From a virus, in the IMG/VR virus record IMGVR_UViG_3300027782_000040: 64,000 nucleotides of DNA; one strand, written 5' to 3'. The notes under the pieces were generated by a model that was not told the DNA's origin, ran no database searches, and saw only the letters and a list, made by a program, of their open reading frames with translations. Below, one piece after another: positions 2,652 to 36,896 of this stretch. A program made the translations under genes and the position numbers. Position 1 is the stretch's first letter; the number at the start of each line of letters is the position of its first letter.

Positions 2652-5600
2652 ATGATACAGAAGCATAGAATATCCACAAACATTGGGAAGGACCAAATAG
2701 TCAATCTTGAATTAAAACAAGATTTTGATTTTTTGGAAGTTCTATCATTAAGATTCACTCAAAAGGATGTTTATTCATCAATGTGTTCGGATTACGGTGT
2801 GGTATGTGGTAGAATTACTGTTAACAATGGTTTAGGTGTACCAAACGCCAGAGTATCGTTATTTGTTCCACAATTACAAATTCATTCAAATGATCCAGTT
2901 ATATCTGCGTTATATCCATATACAGAAATTGGGGACAAAGACAGTAACAATTATAGATACAATTTGTTACCATCAAGAAAACAACATGGCGGACATGAAC
3001 CAACCGGTACATTTTTTGACCAAGAAGATATTTTAACAAGAGAAGAAGTTTTAGAAGTGTATGAAACTTATTATTCGTATACAGTTAAAACTAATAGTTC
3101 TGGTGATTTTATGATTTGGGGGGTTCCATTAGGACAACAAACAATTCACGTTGATGTTGATTTATCTGATATTGGTTGTTTCTCTTTAAGACCTGATGAT
3201 TTTATTAGACAAGGTGCTGGTTTAGACCAATTTAAAACATCATACGCTTTTAAAGCATCAGAAGATTTAAATTCGTTACCACAAATTGTTTCATTTGATA
3301 AAACGATTGAAGTTTATCCTTTTTGGGGTAATAATGATTTTTGTGAAATTGGTTTAACAAGAACTGATTTTGATTTATCCGATAAAGGTGTAAGAATTGA
3401 ACCAAAAGCAATTTTATTAGGTTCAATATTTTCTGACCAAGGGAATAGTACTGTAAATAAAAATTGTACTTTAAGAGATGGAATGGGTAATAAATGTAAC
3501 TTAATAACCGAACCAGCAACGGTTGAAATATTAAGATTTACAAATAAAAAAGACGAAAATAATAGACCAATATTGGAACTTATGGAAACAAGTGAAGATA
3601 TTGATGATAGTGGTTCGTTTATGATTTCAGTTCCAATGAATATGGAATATGTTTACACAAACGAATTTGGTGAGAACGAAATTACAAACGACCCAAATAA
3701 AGGGGTACCAACATCCGCATGTTATAGATTTAGAGTATCAACAAAAAATGAATCATTAGGTAGGGTTAGAACTGTAGCTTCTTATTTAATTCCAAATATT
3801 AGGGAATATGCAACAACGGAATCAGAAATTGATAAATCATATACTTGGTCAACAAATTGGAATGATTATCCGACGGGGGCAACAAACAATAACATCCTTT
3901 TTAATAATGTTAATGGGTCATATTACCCACAAGATTATTTTTATAGATTTAATTATAATAAAATTTATAGTGTATCGTCATTTTTTGGATCTTATAGTGA
4001 AGGTAATTTAGGGATTACACAAATAGCACCAAAGGAGGAAGACGATTGTCAAAACAATTCACTCACACCTCCAATTAATCATGCGACACAAACAGTTACC
4101 TTCGCAATTTTATTGGCTATAATATTGAACACATTCGAAAGAATAAGTTATTACACAATCATTGCGGCTATACAGGTTTTAATTGTTCCATTTCAAGCAT
4201 TATATAATTGGCACATATACATACGTGCTTTAAAAGTAACATTGATAGATTATTATCCATTTAGGGCGGGTGGTATTATTGATGTTGATACTAAAGTTAT
4301 TGAACCATTACAAAGATTCGGTACTGTTCGTTTAGGTATTGCAATATATCCTGAATGTGAAACATGTGACAACTTAGATTATATAAATGATTTGCCAACA
4401 ACAACGACAGATCCAGAATTAACGTTTCTTAAAGTTGCAACAGGAACAGGTGTTACGGATACATCTTTATACGCCACATGTGGGGTTGAGATTTTTGACG
4501 AATCAAGTGTTAGGATATTTTTATCAATTCCAACTACTGGAACCACATGTGCATCCGTATCACCTATCTTCACAACGACAGGTACCACTATAACTAATAT
4601 TATTGATAATCCAGGTAGATACATTATAAAATTTAACGATACAGGAGAATATGGAAATCTTAGTGTTTATGGGTATGACATATCGGGATCAGGAACAACA
4701 GCATATTATTACGATGATACAACGGGTTTAAGTTATACAGGTCAAACATTACCGACAGGAAGTATAGGATATGAAATATTTGATTCACTATCATTTTTAA
4801 TTGGAGGTTCAAATACTTCAGGATTAAATAGTGAATTAGAAGGAGGATGTCAACAATATGTTACCGTGTATAAAGAATCAATTGTTTATGGAACATATTG
4901 TGCTAGTAACGCATCTACACCATATAGTGGATTAACATCGGCAAATATAAAATTAGGTACTGTTTGTACCACAGGTATAACCGTTGGTCAAGTTATTGCT
5001 GGTGTTAATAGTAATCCTTGTGGTACATGTGGCACACACAGTGGATTTTCTGAATTTAGATATGGATTATTTACAATTATACCGGCGGCGGCAATTGCCA
5101 ATTGGGGAGATAATTTTGATGCAATTACCGAATACGCAAGAAGAAAACTTGTTGCTAAAGTGTTCTGTGGTGGTATAGCAAATTATAAATTTATTGACAA
5201 TTGGTTGACCGGTTCATTATATATGTTTCCATTTAAAGCAAAAGTTAGATGGGATAATGAGGAAACATTAGATTTAAATGTTAGAAGAACAAAATATTGT
5301 CCAGATTTAGTTTATTTTAAAGCAGGTACGGTGGAAAATCCTGATAAAAGATTTTATTATAGATCTACATATTTTAATGGTACAACATTTAGTAGAAGTA
5401 GTAGAGAAAGTTTAGGTCACCCAACAACAATTGTTGATTTAGGACCAAGAGATGAATTTATAAAAGAAATATGTGTGGACCCACAATTAGACCCAAACTG
5501 TTCGGTTGTTAGAGATATTGGACCAACATCCTATCAAAATTTTAAAGAGATGTTAGGGTTATATATTAATTATAAATTAGATTATTTAGCAACAGACCAA

Positions 5601-10070: not shown

Positions 10071-10946
10071 ATGAAAAGAATTAACCATACCATTAAAAGA
10101 AAAAAAATACCTGAAGTGAAATTAGTTTCATTAACAGGTAAGACATGGTACGATTCAAATAATAACCCAACACCATGGACGGGTGACACTGAATTTTTAG
10201 TTACAGGTTTTACACCCGACACAGGTTATGTTGTTTATAACGTAACCGGTGGAACTGTAGATGGTGGTTATTATTATAAATGGAATACACCAACAGAAGA
10301 CACATGGAATTTAATTGTTGGTACAGGTACGACAGAACAAGAAATAGAAACCCATGTTAATAGCCAAATACATGAAGATTTTCAACTACCATTATTTTTA
10401 GAAGCAACGGCTGATGAAATGGGAGATATGGTTGATTTTGATAAAAATATTGGACATAATGAAATTAGTGCAAACTTCGCATATGAAAGTGTTTGTACTG
10501 AAACTGGTAGTACAATAACAATTAACAACACAACAACATATCAATTAGTTAATATAATTTTGGCTAATGATACGAATCCAGACGGAACAACGAATGTAAC
10601 GAGTGTTAGAAGATTGGCTACAGAAATATCCGAACAAAATGTTTTAGACGAATTAGAAGATTTTTTAGTGGTTGATGGACAAGATTTTTCAATATCGGGA
10701 TCATCATTTACGGTACATTGGGGAGACGAAACAACATCACCAATTGGAATTAATGGTAGTGTAACAAAATCATTTGATGTTGCCGAAGAAAAAACAATTA
10801 GAATAGTTTTTGAGTCACCATATTTAACAAATCAAGTGGTTAAAGTTGTTAATTGTGGTGAAACTGCAGTGAGTTACATGAGAATTAATACCGAAAACAA
10901 TGACCCTATTCAAAGTGAAAATAATAATTACATAAATGTCGATTAG
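10071..10946 (+). CDS. Putative structural protein with PKD-like C-terminal part and terminal TENxxxIxSENN motif
   Basis: FTVHWGD PKD-like motif. Ends INTENNDPIQSENNNYINVD. Confidence 0.55.
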   Translation: MKRINHTIKRKKIPEVKLVSLTGKTWYDSNNNPTPWTGDTEFLVTGFTPDTGYVVYNVTGGTVDGGYYYKWNTPTEDTWNLIVGTGTTEQEIETHVNSQIHEDFQLPLFLEATADEMGDMVDFDKNIGHNEISANFAYESVCTETGSTITINNTTTYQLVNIILANDTNPDGTTNVTSVRRLATEISEQNVLDELEDFLVVDGQDFSISGSSFTVHWGDETTSPIGINGSVTKSFDVAEEKTIRIVFESPYLTNQVVKVVNCGETAVSYMRINTENNDPIQSENNNYINVD

Positions 10947-28091: not shown

Positions 28092-29033
28092 ATGAACACC
28101 CAAGAAGTAGATTATTCCGCAGTATTTGAAATTTTGGAAGATATATTTGGTGACTATAAGAATCATAATGATTATAGATATCAAGTCTCTTTTGACTGTC
28201 CTGTGTGTTCTCACGAAATCAAAGGGTTAGAAAAAGGTGATGGTAAAGGAAACTTGGAAATCAATTACAAATATGGTGTTTATAAGTGTTGGGTATGTGC
28301 CGAATCTCACGAAACACACGGTTCAATATATAAGTTAATTAAGAAGTTTGGTAACCCTAAACAACTTAAAAAATATATTTTATTAAAACCAGAAGAAGAT
28401 GAGGATGGTAATAAAAAAGAATACAAACCAGTTAAATTACCAAAAGAATTTATTCCATTTAAAGATGCAAGTTTTGGAATGAAATTAACACCAGGATATA
28501 AGCAGGCATACAATTACATTAAAAGTAGGAATATTACCGATTTGATGTTGCAACTTTATAATATTGGATTTTGTGCAACAGGTGTATATGAAAATAGAAT
28601 TATCATTCCTTCATATGATGAAAATAGAAGGTTGAATTACTTTATTGCTCGTTCTTTTTTAAACAAAACGAGAAGAAAGTATATGAACCCCGTAGTACAA
28701 AAGGAAATCATTATTTTCAATGAAAGTTTAATTAATTGGGACGAACCTGTTTATATAGTTGAAGGTGCGTTCGATAGTATTTTCATTCCAAACGCAATCC
28801 CAATGTTGGGAAAGTTTATGGGTGAACATTTATTTAAAAAACTATATGATAATGCAAAAAAAATAATTATAGTACTTGACCCCGATGCGTGGAACGACCA
28901 AGAGAGATTGTATCATAGATTGAATTGTGGGAAACTAATGGGAAAAGTGTGGAGTATTAAATTAGAAGGGGATAAAGACATTGCCGATTTACAAGGAAAC
29001 TTAAGTGAATATAAAATGAAACAAATAGAGTAA
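28092..29033 (+). CDS. DNA primase (Zn finger + TOPRIM)
   Basis: CPVC...YKCWVC zinc finger, RIIIP, IVEGAFD and LDPDA TOPRIM motifs. Confidence 0.9.
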   Translation: MNTQEVDYSAVFEILEDIFGDYKNHNDYRYQVSFDCPVCSHEIKGLEKGDGKGNLEINYKYGVYKCWVCAESHETHGSIYKLIKKFGNPKQLKKYILLKPEEDEDGNKKEYKPVKLPKEFIPFKDASFGMKLTPGYKQAYNYIKSRNITDLMLQLYNIGFCATGVYENRIIIPSYDENRRLNYFIARSFLNKTRRKYMNPVVQKEIIIFNESLINWDEPVYIVEGAFDSIFIPNAIPMLGKFMGEHLFKKLYDNAKKIIIVLDPDAWNDQERLYHRLNCGKLMGKVWSIKLEGDKDIADLQGNLSEYKMKQIE

Positions 29034-29034
29034 C

Positions 29035-29904
29035 ATGAATTTAAAAGACATCTCATTAGAGATAAACGATTTATTAGAAAAGAGAAGACAAGAATTAGAA
29101 TTAACATTCATAGAAGAAGAACACATTTACTATATGAAAGATGTTGATGGTGAAATTAAAAAGAACTTTCCATCCGTATCTAAAGTAGTTAAGAAATTTC
29201 ACAAACCATTTGATGCTGATGGTATGGCACTTAAAATGGCAAAAGGAGACCCTGAAGGACAATCACAATTACTTGCCGAATGGAAAGAGGCTGGCGACTT
29301 ATCAACCAATATGGGAAGTAGAGTTCACTTTGAATTGGAGAAAGATTTAATTGGTCGTTTTGGTAATTACAAAGAAGTTAGACAACCGATATTTGAGATT
29401 AATGAAGAACAACAACGCAAAAGTGATGCAATGATTAAAGCGGGAAAAGATTTTCTTGATTTAATGTTAGAACGAGGAGGGGTATTATTAGATACAGAAA
29501 TTGTATTAGGTGATCCCAAAGAGCAGTATACGGGGCAACCTGATAAGTGTTGGTTAATGCAAAATAAAACAAAAGACGATTTTGGATTTGTAATAACTGA
29601 TTGGAAGAGTAATAAGCCAAAGAACTTTGAGGTACATCACTATACTGGTAGATTGTATCCACCATTTAATAATTTTCATGATAATGCCTTAGGCCATTAT
29701 TATTTACAATTACCATTATATGGTAGATTGTTACGTAAGATGCTAGAAGGGACAAAATATTCCGATACTAAATTATTAGGTGGAGTTATAGTTCTTTTAA
29801 AAGAAGACGGAACATTTACCGAATATAAAGTTCCACCACAAATAACAAATGCAATCCTTACAATGGATTTATCAAAATATATTTCAAGATGGTCAAAAAA
29901 ATAA
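29035..29904 (+). CDS. PD-(D/E)XK exonuclease
   Basis: PSVS, GSRVH, GQPD...ITDWKS, YYLQLPLY motifs. Confidence 0.8.
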   Translation: MNLKDISLEINDLLEKRRQELELTFIEEEHIYYMKDVDGEIKKNFPSVSKVVKKFHKPFDADGMALKMAKGDPEGQSQLLAEWKEAGDLSTNMGSRVHFELEKDLIGRFGNYKEVRQPIFEINEEQQRKSDAMIKAGKDFLDLMLERGGVLLDTEIVLGDPKEQYTGQPDKCWLMQNKTKDDFGFVITDWKSNKPKNFEVHHYTGRLYPPFNNFHDNALGHYYLQLPLYGRLLRKMLEGTKYSDTKLLGGVIVLLKEDGTFTEYKVPPQITNAILTMDLSKYISRWSKK

Positions 29905-30569
29905 TACACATTGCCGACTTACATATTCGTACAATTCAAATGCATGATTTGTATAGAGAACAATTTGAAACATTAATTGATGAGATACGAGAACATAATA
30001 TTGTGTGGCATCAAGAAGGTATTGAATATGAAGAAATTCGTATCGTTGTTGCAGGGGACCTGGCGCATCAGAAAATAAATATTTCTAATGAACAGTTATT
30101 ATTAACAAGTTGGTTTTTAAAAGAATTATCGAAATATGGTAAAGTTGTTATCATTCCCGGCAATCACGATTTCTTAGAAAATAATACACAAAGAATGGAT
30201 AGTATAACACCTGTGGTTCAATTATTAGACGACCCAACTATTCAATATTACAAAGATAGTGGTGAATATATGGATGATAATATTCAATGGATTGTTTATT
30301 CATTATATCAACATAACGCACGACCTGAGTTTACTAAAGACGAATCTAAATTAACGATAGGATTATTCCACGGACCTATTCAAGGATTTTCAACTGATTT
30401 AGGTTTTACATTTGACGACGCATATGATAAAAGTAATTTTTATGGTTGTGATATTGTCCTATGTGGAGATATACATAAAAGAGCAATTGTAAATTTGGAG
30501 ACGGAAATTGAAGTTGATGAAAAAGATGTTGAAAATTATTTAAAAAATGGTTGGGAAAAAGTGATTTAG
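29889..30569 (+). CDS. SbcD/Mre11-like metallophosphoesterase, N-terminal fragment
   Basis: ADLH, GD, GNHD, FHG and GDIHKR motifs. Ends in an acidic tail. Confidence 0.85.
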   Translation: MVKKIIHIADLHIRTIQMHDLYREQFETLIDEIREHNIVWHQEGIEYEEIRIVVAGDLAHQKINISNEQLLLTSWFLKELSKYGKVVIIPGNHDFLENNTQRMDSITPVVQLLDDPTIQYYKDSGEYMDDNIQWIVYSLYQHNARPEFTKDESKLTIGLFHGPIQGFSTDLGFTFDDAYDKSNFYGCDIVLCGDIHKRAIVNLETEIEVDEKDVENYLKNGWEKVI

Positions 30570-30573
30570 TCTT

Positions 30574-30603
30574 TTTTGGTGATATTTATATATATCACTA
30601 AAA
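30574..30603 (+). promoter_or_regulatory. Inverted repeat containing a TATTTAT late-promoter motif upstream of the homing endonuclease
   Basis: TTTTGGTGATAT-ttatat-ATATCACTAAAA, with TATTTAT at 30583-30589. Confidence 0.6.
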
Positions 30604-30613
30604 TATTATAAAT

Positions 30614-31468
30614 ATGGAAAAAAATTGTGAAAGATGTGGAAATAAATTTAATGGAAAAAAAAATCAAAAATTTTGTTCTAAAAAATGTATTCACGTAAAA
30701 ATTGAACAAATAGTAAAGGTGTGTGAATTAGATGAATGTGATAATACATTTTTAATTTATCCAAATGCTAAAATACCAAAAAGATTATGTTCAAGAAAAT
30801 GTCAAGTTAAATGGCAAAAAATAAATATGGTGGGTGAAAGTAATCCAAATTATGGAAATAGGAAACCTGGTATGTTTAAACATACCGAAGAAACTAAAAA
30901 AATATTAAAAGAAAAAATTAAAGAAAGTTGGAAAAAAGAAAGTAGAATAAAAAAACATTTAGATTTTTTTGAAAGACATAGACTTGAAGATGGATCAATG
31001 GATTGGCATACAAATGAATTTAGGGAAAAAATTAGTAAATCAAATATAAAAAGGTTAGAAAATAATGAAACATCTTTTGCGTATAAAAATTGCACAAAAG
31101 GTTTTTTATTAAATACAAAAACAAATAATGAGGAGTTCTATCATTCGTCTTGGGAAATGAATAAGATGATAGAATTAAATGAAAATAAAGATGTATTTTT
31201 TTGGACGAAAAAACATGGAATACAAATAAAATATAATCATAAAAATTTAAATAAAATTTATTTACCCGATTTTTATGTTGAATATATTAACGGAGTTAAA
31301 AAAATAGAAGAAATAAAAGGATATGTCGAAGATGAAGAGCAATTAAAGTTAAAAATAATTGCAGTTAAAGAATATTGTAAAATCAATAATATACAATTTG
31401 TTATTGATTATGTTGAAAATAAAGAAAAATATAAACATTTAATAGAATGGGAAAAAAAATTAAATTAG
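30614..31468 (+). mobile_element. Free-standing homing endonuclease-like gene (Zn ribbons, NUMOD3-like, TnsA-N-like PD-(D/E)XK domain) inserted in sbcD
   Basis: CERC/FCSKKC/LCSRKC, NPNYG...HTEETKK, YHSSWE...YLPDFYV...IEEIKG. Very low GC. Confidence 0.8.
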
Positions 31469-31677
31469 TAAAAAAAATACCAATAATACAAATTGGTAGC
31501 CTCATTCAACAAAACTTTGGTGAGACAGTTAAACATCATGGGTATGGTATTTATGATGTGGAAACAAATGAATATACATTTCATGATTTGGATAACGAAC
31601 AGCCGTTTCTTCATTTCTCAATAAACGATATAAAAGACATTGAAGATGGAAAAGAAACACACGTTAATCTTGGATAA
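31447..31677 (+). CDS. SbcD/Mre11-like nuclease, C-terminal fragment
   Basis: GSLIQQNFGE...HGYGIYD is the motif that normally follows GDIHKR in this family. It has its own ATG inside the endonuclease 3' end. Confidence 0.85.
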   Translation: MGKKIKLVKKIPIIQIGSLIQQNFGETVKHHGYGIYDVETNEYTFHDLDNEQPFLHFSINDIKDIEDGKETHVNLG

Positions 31678-32185
31678 GGAGTTCACTCAATTTTGTGAAT
31701 TAAATAATATAACAGATATTGATAAACAAGCTCAAGAAACCTTTAATAGAGGATTTTCTTTATTAAAATACGGTGAGATACCAAATGGTAATAAAATTAG
31801 AGAAATCGTTGAAGTACCCAAAGAGACAATCAAAGAAGTTATTGTTGAAAAGATAGTTGAACGTATTGTTGAGGTTCCCGTTGAAGTCATTAGGGAAGTA
31901 ATTAAAGAAATAACAATAGAGGTACCTGTGGAGGTCATTAAAGAGGTCATCGTTGAAAAGAAAGGTAAGAGTAAAACCGTAACTAAAGAGGTGATTAAAG
32001 AGGTTCCGGTTGAGAAAATTGTGGAAGTTGTTAGGGAGGTGCTTAACAATGATGAGATAGATAGATTAATGAAAGAGAATGAAAAACTTAAGACAGATTT
32101 AGATAACATTACAAATTCACTATCCAAGTTAGGGAAGGGTAGATTAATGAAGAATAGTAATATGAATTCATTATACGACGAATAA
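31646..32185 (+). CDS. Hypothetical protein with V/I/E/K repeats (EVPVEVIKEV) and C-terminal coiled coil
   Basis: Repetitive central region. ATG at 31646. Confidence 0.75.
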   Translation: MEKKHTLILDKEFTQFCELNNITDIDKQAQETFNRGFSLLKYGEIPNGNKIREIVEVPKETIKEVIVEKIVERIVEVPVEVIREVIKEITIEVPVEVIKEVIVEKKGKSKTVTKEVIKEVPVEKIVEVVREVLNNDEIDRLMKENEKLKTDLDNITNSLSKLGKGRLMKNSNMNSLYDE

Positions 32186-32244
32186 TTTTCGGCAACTTAC
32201 TTTTTTTTACGGAATCTTTTCTCTATATTTTAAATAATAAATTA

Positions 32245-32550
32245 ATGATTATGATGAATTTTATTATGTGGTTGTTCATTTCCTATGGGATATCAAACAT
32301 TATGGTTTTTGGTAGTATATTCAACACACCAAGAGAATGGATTACAAGAAAATCAGAATGGTTTGGAAAACTGGTGAATTGTATGATGTGCCTACCCTTT
32401 TATGTAGGCATTGGTATGTCCCTTGTTTTTGGGGGATTAACAAATAAATATTTTCCATGTCCTTGGTATATGTGTTTATTCTTTGATGCTGTTTTAACCA
32501 GTGGTTTAGTCTATTCATTTAATGTCTTGGTTGAGAAATTAGAAAAATAG
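32245..32550 (+). CDS. Small membrane protein (DUF1360-like CxxC)
   Basis: Three hydrophobic segments. LVNCMMCLPFYVG motif. Confidence 0.6.
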   Translation: MIMMNFIMWLFISYGISNIMVFGSIFNTPREWITRKSEWFGKLVNCMMCLPFYVGIGMSLVFGGLTNKYFPCPWYMCLFFDAVLTSGLVYSFNVLVEKLEK

Positions 32551-32559
32551 AATTAAGTA

Positions 32560-33249
32560 ATGAATAGTAATTTACCAATATTCCATCCATTTAATTTATT
32601 AAAAAGAATGAACAATTTTTTTAATGAAGTTGTTAATCCACTTTCACCTGAATTTATTGTTGGAGATTTTAAAGACGGAAGAAAAGAATCAGAAAAACAA
32701 GAAAATCCAATACGTGTGTTTCTAATGGATTTAAATTCAGAGGCAAGTAAGTATGGATTTAAATTTAAAAATAGATTAGATGAAAATAATGAAAGAAGTA
32801 CCGAAGATATTATCATTGAAGATTTATTATCGATTGAACATACGGAGCATTTAGGTAATATTAAATCACATATGTCCAAAAATGCAAGTAATATTGGTAA
32901 AGATGGAATAATTGGTTATGCATTAACGGGAGACGACAAATCTTATAAAACCGCACAAATAACTGAATTGTTTCTCAACAAAGTAAAAAATAATGATAAT
33001 AAAATAAATTATGGGTTTTATTATTATATATCTTATAAAAAAGATAAAAAAACATTTTTAGTACACGAATTATCATATATGTCACAAGATGATATTATAA
33101 TTAACCCAACAAATTTTTTACAATCTAAAATGGAATATGAATCAGTTTATAGAACAAGTGAAGAAAGGTTTTATTTTTTGTGGGAAAATTATAAAATGTA
33201 TGTTAGAAAAAATGTAATTAAATTTGACGGTATGGACCCATACCTATAA
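32560..33249 (+). CDS. Putative type II restriction endonuclease
   Basis: Immediately upstream of the MTase, possible D...NIK catalytic motif, low GC. Confidence 0.45.
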   Translation: MNSNLPIFHPFNLLKRMNNFFNEVVNPLSPEFIVGDFKDGRKESEKQENPIRVFLMDLNSEASKYGFKFKNRLDENNERSTEDIIIEDLLSIEHTEHLGNIKSHMSKNASNIGKDGIIGYALTGDDKSYKTAQITELFLNKVKNNDNKINYGFYYYISYKKDKKTFLVHELSYMSQDDIIINPTNFLQSKMEYESVYRTSEERFYFLWENYKMYVRKNVIKFDGMDPYL

Positions 33250-33255
33250 TATATC

Positions 33256-34563
33256 ATGAGTGAAAAAATATTGACGGAAGAAGAAATAAACAAATTAAAT
33301 AAAGATAAATACGGACAGTTCTTTTCAAAGAATCCTGTAATAAGGAACGTAATACAATCTCTCATCTCAAACAAAGGTACAATTATGGAACCTTCAGTTG
33401 GGGAAGGAGATTTAATTTTTGGGTTAGAGAGTAAAGAACCTGTCTTAATAGACTTTAAACCTAAGGTTACGGAAATCAATAGTATTCCCGTAATTGAAAT
33501 GGACTTCTTTAGTTATCCAGTAGAAAATAAATTTAACACAATTATTGGTAACCCACCATTTGTAAAATATAAATTTCTTGACGATAGTGTTGTAGAAAAT
33601 ATAAAACACTATGAATTTAATAAAAAGACTAATCCAAATGGATATAACAAGAAATCAAATCTATATTATTTTTTTATTCATAAGTGTATTGAACAATTAG
33701 AAGATAATGGAGAATTAATTTTTATTACACCAAAAGAGTTCATGTATAATGTGGGAGCGATTACTTTGAGAAATTTCATGTTTCAAAATGGTACAATAAC
33801 TCATTTTATAGATTGCGGAGAGAAAAAGTTATTTACTGATGCATCTGTACCATCTCTTTGTATCTTTAGATTTCAAAAGGGTACATTCTTAAGAGAAACT
33901 AAATTTTGGGAAACAATCGAATCATATGTAAATAAGGATGAATGTGTTATTAAACCAATGAAGATATCAAATGACCAATTTTGTTTTTGTGATGAAGACG
34001 ATACTAACACACTATCAGATTTTTTTGATGTTAAAGTAGGTGTAGTATCAGGATTAGATGGTTTCTATTCAACTGATAGGGTAGAAGATGGTGTTTATAT
34101 ACATAAATTTAGAACTAATAGTGGTTATCAGAATTATTATTTTTTTGACCAAATAAATGATATTAATTTAGTACCGGAGGATATTAGATTGTTATTCTTA
34201 TTAAATAAGGATAAATTAAAAAATAGAAAAATTAAAAAATATACGGATAATGATTGGTGGAAATATGGTGCAGTTAGAAACTTAGAAAATATGTTAAGTG
34301 ACAAAAATAGAATCTATGTCGCACCAAAAACAAGATTAGCAAATCCATTTTTTATGGGACAATCAAATGAACTTTACTCTGGTTCGTTGTTGGGTATATT
34401 TCCTAAAAAAGATAATATTGATTTGGAAAAATCTATTATGTTTTTTAATTCTGATATTTTTAAAAACAGATTAAAACAATTTTTTATAATGATTGAAGAT
34501 AAATTTAATTTTACACCTTCAGTACTTGGAAAAATACCACTAAATTTAAACGAAATAATTTAA
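33256..34563 (+). CDS. Amino-DNA methyltransferase (gamma class, Eco57I/TaqI-like)
   Basis: YGQFFS, MEPSVGEG (motif I), IIGNPPF (motif IV), NLYYFFI and a C-terminal target-recognition domain. Confidence 0.9.
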   Translation: MSEKILTEEEINKLNKDKYGQFFSKNPVIRNVIQSLISNKGTIMEPSVGEGDLIFGLESKEPVLIDFKPKVTEINSIPVIEMDFFSYPVENKFNTIIGNPPFVKYKFLDDSVVENIKHYEFNKKTNPNGYNKKSNLYYFFIHKCIEQLEDNGELIFITPKEFMYNVGAITLRNFMFQNGTITHFIDCGEKKLFTDASVPSLCIFRFQKGTFLRETKFWETIESYVNKDECVIKPMKISNDQFCFCDEDDTNTLSDFFDVKVGVVSGLDGFYSTDRVEDGVYIHKFRTNSGYQNYYFFDQINDINLVPEDIRLLFLLNKDKLKNRKIKKYTDNDWWKYGAVRNLENMLSDKNRIYVAPKTRLANPFFMGQSNELYSGSLLGIFPKKDNIDLEKSIMFFNSDIFKNRLKQFFIMIEDKFNFTPSVLGKIPLNLNEII

Positions 34564-36896
34564 TGAATCCGTTTATAAAAGTAACGTGGGAAGATGTCCC
34601 CGAAAATTTCACCCCTGAAAAAATCAGAAGAGTAAAATCTTATTTTGAGAAAAAATATAATGCTAAGACAGTTCAAGTAATCACTAAAACATTAACGAGT
34701 GTTAATCAAACACGATTAGAATCTTTGGAAGCGTCAGATAATATCTTAGACCACCAATATCAAAAGAAACTAATGAAAGATTTCATTAAGGATAATGAAA
34801 TTGATATTAAATGGGAATTGGTTGATAGGTTAGATAATAAAGTTAATATTCAAATAGATAAATTAAATGAAAACAAAGTTAGATATAATAAATGGTATAT
34901 TAGGAAAGTGGAGTTTTCTAATTTTTTATCATTCGGAGATAATAACGTTATTGATTTTACTGGGTTGGACGGTATTACGGTAATTGAATCCACACCAAAG
35001 AACTTCGGCGGTAAATCTACATCTTCAGTAGATCTTTTAATGTTCTTATTTTTTAATACAACAACAAAGACAAAAACTAACGGTGAAATCTTTAATAGAT
35101 TTACCGATAAGAATGATGTAAGTGTTCGTGGTGAAATCACTATTGATGGTGATGACTACGTCATTGAAAGAAAGACATCTCGTAAGATGGGTAAGTCTGG
35201 TGAGTACACCGTTAAAAATGAATTAGAGTTTTATAAAAAAACTGAAGATGGAGAAATCGTAAATTTATCGGGTGAACAAAGAAGAGAAACGGAAGCATTT
35301 ATATCTTCAGCAATTGGAACAGAAGAAGATTTCTTATCAACCATATTAACAACTGGTTATAATTTAGAAGAACTGATTGAATCCAAACCAACCGCTCGTG
35401 GACAAATCTTAACAAAGTTCATGGGGTTGGAAAACTTAAAAATTAAAGAAGAACTTGCAAAAGAAATTTATAACGATTGGGGTAAGAAATTGGTATCCAA
35501 CACATATAACAAAGTTAGTTTAGAATCTGATAATGAAACATACAAAGAAAGTATTACCAATTCAGAAAATGAGATTGTAAAATTAACAAAAGAATTAGGT
35601 AAGTTTGAAAAGGATTTAGACAAGTTAGAAAAGAAAAGAGATGATGTATTTTTAAAAAGAAATAATGATGTTGATAAAGAATTACTGAATACAAATCCAA
35701 CTTTATTACAAAGAGAAGTTACTTTTTTATTAACTCAAAAAAATGTAAGTCAAACAAACGCCGACGGAGTTAGTGTTGTTGAACCATCACAATTCTATGA
35801 TGAAGATCAACACAAAGAGTTAAAAGGTGAAATGGCAAATCTTCAAGGAATTGATGTTGTATCCAAATATGAAAAAACTCAAAGAGAAAAATTAATTAAA
35901 CAATTTGAAGAAGGAACAGTTTGTCCTACTTGTAATCGTGCGTTAGATGAAGTAGATCATACGGACGAGATTGAAAAGATTAAAAAAGAAATTGAAGATA
36001 TCATTAAGGAGATGGAATTAAATCAAAATCAATTTGATTTATTAAAAGAACAATCTGAAGGATTTGATAAATTAAAAACCGAATTTGAAGCTTACGAAAG
36101 AAACAAACTTCGTAAGGAAAGATATCAATTAGAGATTGAACAAAAACAATTGGAGATTGATAGTAAACAAAAAAGATTAGATAATTACGAAAGTAATAAA
36201 AAGAAACTTGAGGATAACCAAAAGATTGATGCTGAAGTGATTGCACTTAAAACTAAAATAGAAACAGCAAACGGAGATATTAGACAGACAAACACTAACA
36301 TTGAAAAACATACCAATAACATTTCAAATATGAATGGTAAGGTTGGTATCAATGAGGAGTTAATTAAAAAGATTACGGCGGAGGAAGAATTAGCTGCCGT
36401 GTTTAAAATATACTTAACCGTTTATGGTAAAAACGGAATATCTAAAATCATTCTTAAAAATATGATTCCATTAATCAATCAGGAATTGTATCGTTTGTTA
36501 GTTGATAGTTGTCATTTCATTTTAGAGATGAATATAAACGATAAGAACGAGGTTGAATTTATTATGATAGATACTGAAACTCGTATTGTTAAGCCTCTTA
36601 ATGCGGGGTCTGGTTATGAAAGAACCATATCCTCATTGGCACTTCGTAGTGTATTAACTAAAATATCATCATTACCTAAACCTAACATCGTAGTTATGGA
36701 CGAGGTGTTTGGTAAGATTGCTGACGAGAACTTGGAAATGGTCGGTGAGTTCTTTAAAAAGATTAAAAATTATTTTGACCATATACTTGTCATATCACAC
36801 AATTCTTTAATACGTAATTGGTCTGATAATATCGTTATGATTAAGAAAGAAGAAAATGTTTCATCCATAGATTTTATCACAACAAAAATTTCTTAG
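34563..36896 (+). CDS. SbcC/Rad50 (gp46-like) ATPase
   Basis: NFLSFG, GGKST Walker A, coiled coil with CPTC hook, GSGYE signature, VVMDE Walker B, VISH. Confidence 0.92.
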   Translation: MNPFIKVTWEDVPENFTPEKIRRVKSYFEKKYNAKTVQVITKTLTSVNQTRLESLEASDNILDHQYQKKLMKDFIKDNEIDIKWELVDRLDNKVNIQIDKLNENKVRYNKWYIRKVEFSNFLSFGDNNVIDFTGLDGITVIESTPKNFGGKSTSSVDLLMFLFFNTTTKTKTNGEIFNRFTDKNDVSVRGEITIDGDDYVIERKTSRKMGKSGEYTVKNELEFYKKTEDGEIVNLSGEQRRETEAFISSAIGTEEDFLSTILTTGYNLEELIESKPTARGQILTKFMGLENLKIKEELAKEIYNDWGKKLVSNTYNKVSLESDNETYKESITNSENEIVKLTKELGKFEKDLDKLEKKRDDVFLKRNNDVDKELLNTNPTLLQREVTFLLTQKNVSQTNADGVSVVEPSQFYDEDQHKELKGEMANLQGIDVVSKYEKTQREKLIKQFEEGTVCPTCNRALDEVDHTDEIEKIKKEIEDIIKEMELNQNQFDLLKEQSEGFDKLKTEFEAYERNKLRKERYQLEIEQKQLEIDSKQKRLDNYESNKKKLEDNQKIDAEVIALKTKIETANGDIRQTNTNIEKHTNNISNMNGKVGINEELIKKITAEEELAAVFKIYLTVYGKNGISKIILKNMIPLINQELYRLLVDSCHFILEMNINDKNEVEFIMIDTETRIVKPLNAGSGYERTISSLALRSVLTKISSLPKPNIVVMDEVFGKIADENLEMVGEFFKKIKNYFDHILVISHNSLIRNWSDNIVMIKKEENVSSIDFITTKIS

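Follow-up and report, generated by a model that had tools for sequence, protein, structure and literature searches.

A phage sbcD gene split by a homing endonuclease, and the oppositely charged tails that may hold its halves together

How might an enzyme gene that has been cut in two by a homing endonuclease, with neither an intron nor an intein to mend the break, still yield a working enzyme? The question is raised by the sbcD/mre11 gene of a virus, IMG/VR record IMGVR_UViG_3300027782_000040, of which a stretch of 64,000 nucleotides (nt), here called the window, was analyzed (G+C ~30%; relatives include IMG/VR contigs of 140–335 kb from freshwater). The gene lies in two open reading frames (ORFs) with an endonuclease ORF between them; the upstream half ends in an acidic extension (the N-tail), and the downstream half starts with a basic one (the C-head). 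An earlier note on this DNA had described such an arrangement, and the ORF coordinates and translations bear it out in every part: the layout, the 44-nt gap, the overlap and both tail sequences. The parts, with lengths in amino acids (aa) where translated, are these:

29889 to 30569, plus strand: N-half of sbcD/mre11, 226 aa, whose C-terminal end reads ...CGDIHKRAIVNLETEIEVDEKDVENYLKNGWEKVI before the stop codon; its top Foldseek matches are SbcD/Mre11
30483 to 30569, plus strand: N-tail, made up of AIVNLE, then the acidic tag TEIEVDEKDVENYLKNGWEKVI, then the stop codon
30570 to 30613, plus strand: spacer of 44 nt from the N-half to the endonuclease ATG
30614 to 31468, plus strand: endonuclease ORF, 284 aa, assigned from its sequence as a free-standing homing endonuclease
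31447 to 31677, plus strand: C-half of sbcD, 76 aa, with the N-terminal start MGKKIKLVKKIPIIQIGSLIQQNFGE
31447 to 31476, plus strand: basic C-head MGKKIKLVKK, within the 5' end of the C-half

The answer that we favor, and that we regard as probable, is that the two halves of SbcD reassemble non-covalently, helped by an acidic/basic clasp that the mobile element itself carries. The tails would bind each other, and the split enzyme would be active. Pairing of the tails is suggested by purifying selection on them, by their conserved opposite charges and by the ordered elements that AlphaFold2 predicts for them.

The N-half and the C-half are consecutive pieces of one protein, since they occupy consecutive positions of the PHROG 100 (SbcD-like) profile, 27–220 and 227–281, respectively. 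The break falls between GDIHKR and IGSLIQQ of SbcD, and the metal-binding motifs of the metallophosphoesterase (DLH, GD, GNHD, FHGP and GDIH) all lie within the N-half, which matches the Pfam family Metallophos (PF00149, calcineurin-like metallophosphoesterase) with an E value of 4e-12. The C-half and the endonuclease ORF overlap by 22 nt.

What the break site looks like when nothing has been inserted can be read from two sets of uninterrupted relatives, namely 79 IMG/VR loci plus more than 100 database proteins with a stand-alone SbcD (clade A), and ~68 loci encoding SbcD-SbcC fusions (clade B). The intact form is a 272-aa protein, 85–93% identical to the window over N-half residues 1–198, in which the break site reads CGDIHKR-QQFTLPNGGHAIM-VGSLIQQ. 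All intact clade-A alleles have CGDIHKR-Q[QT]FTLP.GG.A[IV]M-[IV]GSLIQQ there, with a 13-residue hairpin, so that the two motifs are indeed normally a short linker apart, as had been supposed. On the N side of the window's break, AIVNLE stands in place of the native hairpin strand QQFTLP; on the C side, IPIIQ stands in place of the native strand HAIM, and homology to the intact alleles picks up again at IGSLIQQ (31492). Clade-B N-halves are ~31% identical to that of the window. Here, too, intact alleles (~68) have a 13-residue hairpin and read GDIHKPAQFLDDARTIAYPGSLIQQ, and the split ones end in ...YSYEEIEVDE.....EYLKNGWEIK before the stop codon and restart with MSKKIKLFRKKPEIRYAGS. Neither tail was found in any intact allele of either set. 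A split within a loop that was already there, both tails being remnants of it, is thereby ruled out, the tails being absent from every intact homolog examined.

The tails arrived with the endonuclease. Sliding-window and informative-site comparisons with related phages place breakpoints on both sides of the insertion, and these delimit the following features:

30319 to 30376, no strand assigned: left crossover interval; upstream the window follows the intact-allele phage L001, downstream the split alleles L116 and L118
30377 to 30482, plus strand: co-converted 3' end of the N-exon, encoding ...FTFDDAYDKSNFYGCDIVLCGDIHKR
31498 to 31514, no strand assigned: right crossover interval; the split-allele match runs to 31497, and the match to intact-allele L002/L003 starts at 31515

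Up to 30318 the window is ~100% identical to the empty-site phages L001 and L002, and over 30032–30318 it agrees with L001, against L118, at 66 of 66 informative sites. Over 30377–30483 it agrees with the split alleles L116 and L118 at all 31 informative sites, and over 31454–31497 with the split alleles at 20–24 such sites; from 31515 it again follows the intact-allele phages L002 and L003. Over 30377–31497, identity of the window to L116 and L118 is 100%, and outside this block it is only 60–85%. From these sharp switches in identity at both ends it follows that tails and endonuclease were transferred as one block, roughly 30350–31505 (~1.15 kb), which begins with ~110 nt of N-exon acquired by co-conversion, continues through N-tail, endonuclease gene and C-head, and takes in ~6 nt of the C-exon as well. 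The proposal that the invading element supplied the tags is thus upheld. Co-conversion of the exon end also accounts for a patch, FDDAYDK.NF..CDIV, that is present in all clade-A split alleles and in none of the 79 intact ones. A comparison of a 3.5-kb region of the window with deposited phages gave no DNA match.

A tree built from 157 N-terminal columns, all of them outside the co-conversion tract, places the window inside a clade of intact alleles (95% identity to P0004) and demands at least five changes of the split state, at least four of which are forced by well-supported branches. One clade-A subclade of seven sequences, with long branches, is wholly split. At the level of sequence, this tree pattern and the block transfer together are the signature of homing, with long-term persistence in one lineage besides; the endonuclease presumably cuts the intact allele.

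The tails are conserved in both charge and sequence. The net charge in the window is −4 for the N-tail and +5 for the C-head, and across lineages it ranges from −4 to −9 and from +4 to +8, respectively, being opposite in all. Among 11 distinct alleles, the changes in the EIEVDE and YLKNGWE cores are synonymous third-position changes only, except for two of W-E to W-Q, and the per-site differences amount to 0.24/0.09/0.36 by codon position. Since its conserved cores change only synonymously, the N-tail is translated, as a peptide on which selection acts. Identity between lineages is 31–40% for the enzyme cores and 23–40% for the N-terminal regions of the endonucleases, as compared to 56–83% for an 18-residue N-tag and 57–86% for a 7-residue C-tag core; judged by these identities, no other part of the locus is as well conserved between lineages as the tails. 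The same tail pair is found in at least four SbcD lineages, beside endonucleases of HNH, Vsr-like or TnsA-like PD-(D/E)xK type.

The tails also outlive the endonuclease. Both remain intact in all four alleles in which the endonuclease has decayed. Of a window-type gene, L118 (reverse complement of 10640–10891) keeps the last 90 codons; of Vsr-like genes, L100 (8044–8273) keeps the last 71 and L092 (reverse complement of 5429–5545) the last 43; and L119 (736–898) keeps a faint remnant. Because this last remnant looks Vsr-like, at least two types of endonuclease have resided in clade A. In each of the four, the 5' part of the endonuclease has been lost and the 3' part, next to the start of the C-half, has been kept; our guess is that the retained DNA may serve expression of the C-half.

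These observations bear on the bleakest view of the locus, namely that sbcD is dead, a pseudogene broken by a selfish insertion whose tails are meaningless read-through. Phage sbcD can be dispensable under some conditions, and most relatives of the window have the intact allele, as this view would have it. We nonetheless hold it to be very improbable: even at 30% divergence between alleles, both halves retain open frames and all catalytic motifs; no part of the locus is better conserved between clades than the tails, whose changes are of the synonymous kind; and the split state outlasts decay of the endonuclease and fills a whole subclade.

Might the interruption instead be removed during expression, so that a single SbcD chain results? 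Joining GDIHKR-AIVNLE to KKIPIIQ-IGS would produce a hairpin as long as the native one, and in alleles lacking the endonuclease the stretch from GDIH to IGS measures about 290 nt, as a small group I intron would. A group I or group II intron, which the earlier note had thought absent, is rejected on the strength of several results. Four Rfam searches with a cutoff of E ≤ 10, covering the window and the alleles L119, L100 and L092 (gap 117–230 nt), returned no intron family; a 299-nt candidate intron stretch in L119 folds no better than shuffled sequences (z −0.67); and the N-tail, as its substitution pattern shows, evolves as protein. The same note's rejection of an intein holds as well. The N-tails have 22–28 residues and the C-heads 10–15, with Ala and Met as first residues, and the tails show no Cys/Ser-1, no His-Asn, no +1 nucleophile and no match to the Pfam HINT families. 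A split or degenerate intein is excluded because the tails are short and lack both the splicing residues and a HINT match; in the window they amount to 22 and 10 residues. Dassa and co-workers likewise found no intein at a locus of this type (Dassa et al., 2009; PMC2677866).

A further route to a joined product would be ribosomal frameshifting. The overlap of endonuclease and C-half (31447–31468) contains an A8 run that the endonuclease frame reads as A_AAA_AAA, and a −1 slip there would lead into the frame of the C-half. A conserved −1 frameshift joining the endonuclease to the C-half can be set aside, as the slippery run is not conserved: the overlaps in other alleles differ, being ATGA-type or otherwise, and lack a slippery site. 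Taking these routes together, whether cryptic group I/II intron, degenerate or atypical split intein, or A8 frameshift, we find removal of the interruption barely credible.

Loci of this kind have been described before, and comparison with them sharpens the question of what the tails might do. The direct precedent, which the earlier note missed although it rightly named phage Aeh1 nrdA and the split-intein genes, is an SbcD-like locus in the Lake Gatun sample of the Global Ocean Sampling (GOS) data (Dassa, London, Stoddard, Schueler-Furman and Pietrokovski, 2009, Nucleic Acids Res 37:2560; PMC2677866). In that locus, an endonuclease ORF of the Vsr-like kind stands between ORFs for the N and C halves of an SbcD-like exonuclease, and an intein is lacking; the upstream half is longer by 25 residues at its C terminus and the downstream half by 9 at its N terminus, additions that SbcD-like proteins do not have, and the downstream ORF starts before the endonuclease ORF has ended (PMC2677866). 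The window shares with it a split member of the SbcD family, a free-standing endonuclease in between, extra tails, an overlap and an origin among freshwater phage-like metagenomes. It differs in its endonuclease, which is of the TnsA-like PD-(D/E)xK type rather than Vsr-like, and in its SbcD, which is the stand-alone 272-aa type rather than fused to SbcC. The clade-B loci with a Vsr-like endonuclease (L102, L121 and others) fit the Lake Gatun locus, the match being one of description. These workers reported a single locus, without analysis of tail function, spread or decay (PMC2677866).

The precedent for tail function is phage Aeh1, in which NrdA is split by mobE into NrdA-a and NrdA-b (Friedrich et al., 2007; Crona et al., 2010, Nucleic Acids Res 39:1381, PMC3045599). 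The NrdA tails are oppositely charged, probably inherited with mobE, and essential for activity; they are unnecessary for binding of the fragments to one another and needed for higher-order assembly. Crona and co-workers saw in such tails a general way to neutralize fragmentation and predicted that they had been overlooked on other fragmented genes (PMC3045599). In both systems a homing endonuclease of the free-standing kind has broken an enzyme gene between adjacent β-strands, the endonuclease ORF overlaps the downstream half, and a hairpin regulates the endonuclease gene. On the other hand, the enzyme is a different one, the Aeh1 endonuclease is of HNH type, the tail sequences are unrelated, and the polarity is reversed, with a basic tail on NrdA-a and an acidic one on NrdA-b. 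Active-site residues of NrdA are divided between the fragments, whereas the metal ligands of SbcD are all in the N-half; and the NrdA tails have been tested biochemically, whereas those of SbcD are known from sequence and models.

Genes fractured by split inteins (PMC2677866) offer a second comparison, with the same order of N-part, endonuclease and C-part in phage replication and repair genes, and with junction segments that are oppositely charged. The SbcD locus differs from them in lacking HINT motifs and the residues needed for splicing, and its tails are no longer than 22 and 10 residues. Its reassembly must be non-covalent. The T4 topoisomerase genes for gp39/gp60, next to mobA, likewise represent a fragmented gene of T4 type whose parts have charged, tail-like extensions (a remark in PMC3045599); the enzyme is another one, and there is no sequence relation. 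The idea put forward in the earlier note is, then, a published notion about tails (PMC3045599) applied to a published type of locus (PMC2677866).

How the tails might meet was explored with AlphaFold2 on natural same-frame read-throughs, L118 (84-codon gap) and L092 (39-codon gap), in which the read-through stops were replaced by Gly or Ser and the alignments comprised intact and split relatives. In the clade-A model, AIVNLETEIEVD on the N side is predicted as one 12-residue strand that leads into a helix, EKDVENYLK, and then a strand of two residues, with a single 12-residue strand, IKLVKKIPIIQI, on the C side; the predicted local distance difference test score (pLDDT) is 72–84 for the tails and <50 for the junk linker. 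The best matches of this model in the PDB by Foldseek are S. aureus SbcD (7dog) and Mre11 nuclease domains, with E about 1e-6. The clade-B model has a tag strand YKEIEVD, a helix, a short strand and a C-head strand IKLYKKK, all with pLDDT of 77–85, and the native hairpin strands adjoining its tags score <50. Strands of equal length flanking the break would fit an extended hairpin, in which an E-x-E face might meet a K-x-K face.

The course of events that we propose would begin with a mobile cassette, in the order N-tail, hairpin-regulated homing endonuclease gene and C-head, homing into sbcD at the stretch that codes for the hairpin, between GDIHKR and IGS. The gene would thereby become two cistrons, an N-half with all metal ligands that ends in an acidic strand-helix tail, and a C-half that begins with a basic strand and is translated from an ATG of its own, situated just before the endonuclease ORF ends. 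RNA or protein splicing would play no part, the two polypeptides associating non-covalently. AIVNLE/IPIIQ and EIEVD/KIKLV would most likely pair as an extended β-ribbon, with the YLKNGW helix as its cap, and this clasp would restore the SbcD fold for work with SbcC.

Several points weigh against this proposal. The models are of artificial single-chain read-throughs rather than multimers, and their output consists of pLDDT values and DSSP assignments, so that the pairing of tail strands is deduced from matching strand lengths. No clear Shine-Dalgarno sequence precedes the start of the C-half. And, by analogy with NrdA, whose tails serve higher-order assembly, the SbcD tails may have a role other than joining N-half to C-half; since the NrdA tails are not needed for fragment binding (PMC3045599), those of SbcD may serve, for example, SbcD dimerization or SbcC binding.

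It is accordingly worth considering that the split enzyme is functional and the tails are something other than a zipper between its two halves. They might mend a different interface harmed by the break, as in SbcD dimerization or SbcC docking, or they might mainly serve the element, by providing a start codon for the C-half or by destroying the endonuclease target site. The first variant has its parallel in the NrdA tails, dispensable for association of the fragments and essential for assembly of the dimer of heterodimers (PMC3045599). In the clade-B model, moreover, the tails are confidently predicted and the adjacent native hairpin strands fall below 50 pLDDT, and the constant retention of the endonuclease 3' end beside the C-head in decayed alleles hints at a role in expression. 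Against all this, the clade-A model has two continuous 12-residue strands, each made of native hairpin plus tag, as a simple extension of the hairpin would give, and a role in expression or immunity alone would not require that YLKNGWE be conserved as amino acids amid synonymous changes. On balance we think a non-zipper role unlikely, and reassembly through the clasp remains the reading that we prefer.

No new category is established by this locus, its type and its principle having both been published. What it adds is a third nuclease class at this site (TnsA-like PD-(D/E)xK), the stand-alone 272-aa SbcD as a host gene, crossover intervals at base level with near-identical empty-site relatives, and a quantified conservation of the tails that exceeds that of all their surroundings and outlives the endonuclease. 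It lends broad comparative support, from a second enzyme, to the idea of tails as an antidote to fragmentation, the NrdA case being that of a single phage. Natural alleles in the empty-site, occupied and decayed states offer a test of how a selfish element makes its insertion harmless, and the pair of 22 and 10 residues is a candidate for a small non-covalent split-protein tag.

The endonuclease itself has an N-terminal part with CxxC...CSxxC zinc ribbons and a NUMOD3-like region, and a C-terminal TnsA-like PD-(D/E)xK nuclease domain (PDF...ExK). Its family comprises 54 proteins. Among 37 aligned members, 30 match Pfam Tn7_TnsA-like_N (PF08722; best E 5e-8), a few also match other PD-(D/E)xK families and NUMOD3, and residues P218, D219, F220, E233 and K235 are invariant. 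A search of PDB sequences with the family profile returned nothing significant, and a peptide-pattern scan of IMG/VR found no close relative of the window's endonuclease. The position in sbcD that the window's endonuclease occupies is taken in other phages by Vsr-like endonucleases (L102, L112, L121, L162 and L178) or HNH endonucleases (L096 and L106). The TnsA-like, Vsr-like and HNH types have in common a homologous N-terminal region of ~180 residues containing the zinc ribbons and the NUMOD3-like region, with 40% identity over 195 aa between L096 (HNH) and L112 (Vsr-like) (E 3e-46) and 31% over 196 aa between the window's endonuclease and L112 (E 2e-15). This relatedness suggests that a common DNA-binding module, aimed at a conserved site in sbcD, has swapped its catalytic domain; that homing endonucleases are modular in this way is well established.

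Ahead of the endonuclease ATG, the spacer can form a 12-bp hairpin (30574–30603; dG −14 kcal/mol, z −2.4), and adjoining the ATG is TATAAATA, the T4 late-promoter consensus. The hairpin recalls the hairpin control described for mobE and I-TevI.

Is the tail pair more than two charged peptides? A tentative possibility, to which we would give not quite even weight, is that acidic tail and basic head are two pieces of one small autonomous fold, a portable non-covalent clasp that a single endonuclease lineage, its own nuclease domain changing between types (HNH, Vsr-like or TnsA-like PD-(D/E)xK), has spread to at least four SbcD/Mre11 lineages. Such a fold may consist of strand, helix and short strand, completed by one strand from the other chain, and a weak DUF4177-like signal may be its trace. 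A Pfam search with the joined clade-B tags gave a sub-threshold match to DUF4177 (E 0.039; 14.6 bits vs a cutoff of 25), and one with the joined clade-A tags gave no match; the split mini-domain is to be taken as a lead. If the idea is right, the locus would hold a natural, transferable module for reassembling split proteins and not a one-off pair of charged peptides. The earlier note had suggested that the device would be a general means for a homing endonuclease to settle in an essential gene. Such generality was not borne out by pattern scans, in which the tag pair turned up in sbcD only: a scan of metagenomes for the pair found eight loci, the YLKNGWE pattern gave sbcD loci together with unrelated, unbroken proteins, and a stricter pattern for the pair gave sbcD loci only.

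A separate observation concerns four viral contigs, L085, L088, L089 and L103, which encode unrelated small phage proteins with the motif YLKNGWE[IL].G, situated in an apparent DUF1737/DUF4177-type small α/β domain. A domain of this type may be the kind of fold from which the N-tail derives.

As for the surroundings of the locus, the genes 5' of the N-half on the plus strand are a primase (28092–29033) and an exonuclease (29035–29904). Downstream, a variable island (31640–34563) separates sbcD from the gene of its partner:

34563 to 36896, plus strand: SbcC/Rad50-like partner gene, 777 aa, beyond the variable island from sbcD

This SbcC-like ORF was found by tblastn, with the SbcC part of a clade-B fusion as the query (E 3e-36, residues 74–848). 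In the island lie an ORF of 181 aa, which has EVPVEVIKEVI-type repeats and runs over the end of the C-half, a membrane ORF of 101 aa, an ORF of 229 aa that weakly matches an endonuclease PHROG (phrog_3978, E 5e-5), and a 435-aa Eco57I-like N6 DNA methyltransferase. In L116 and L118, the cargo between sbcD and sbcC is different, consisting of an HNH-like ORF and another methyltransferase.

The fused arrangement is found in L127, L129 and ~66 other clade-B loci (e.g., L127:3001–6150), where SbcD-SbcC is a single protein of roughly 1050 aa. Clade B, with this single-chain fusion of Mre11 and Rad50, is a large clade of freshwater phages, and where the cassette has split such a gene, the C-half is left fused to the ATPase (about 850 aa).

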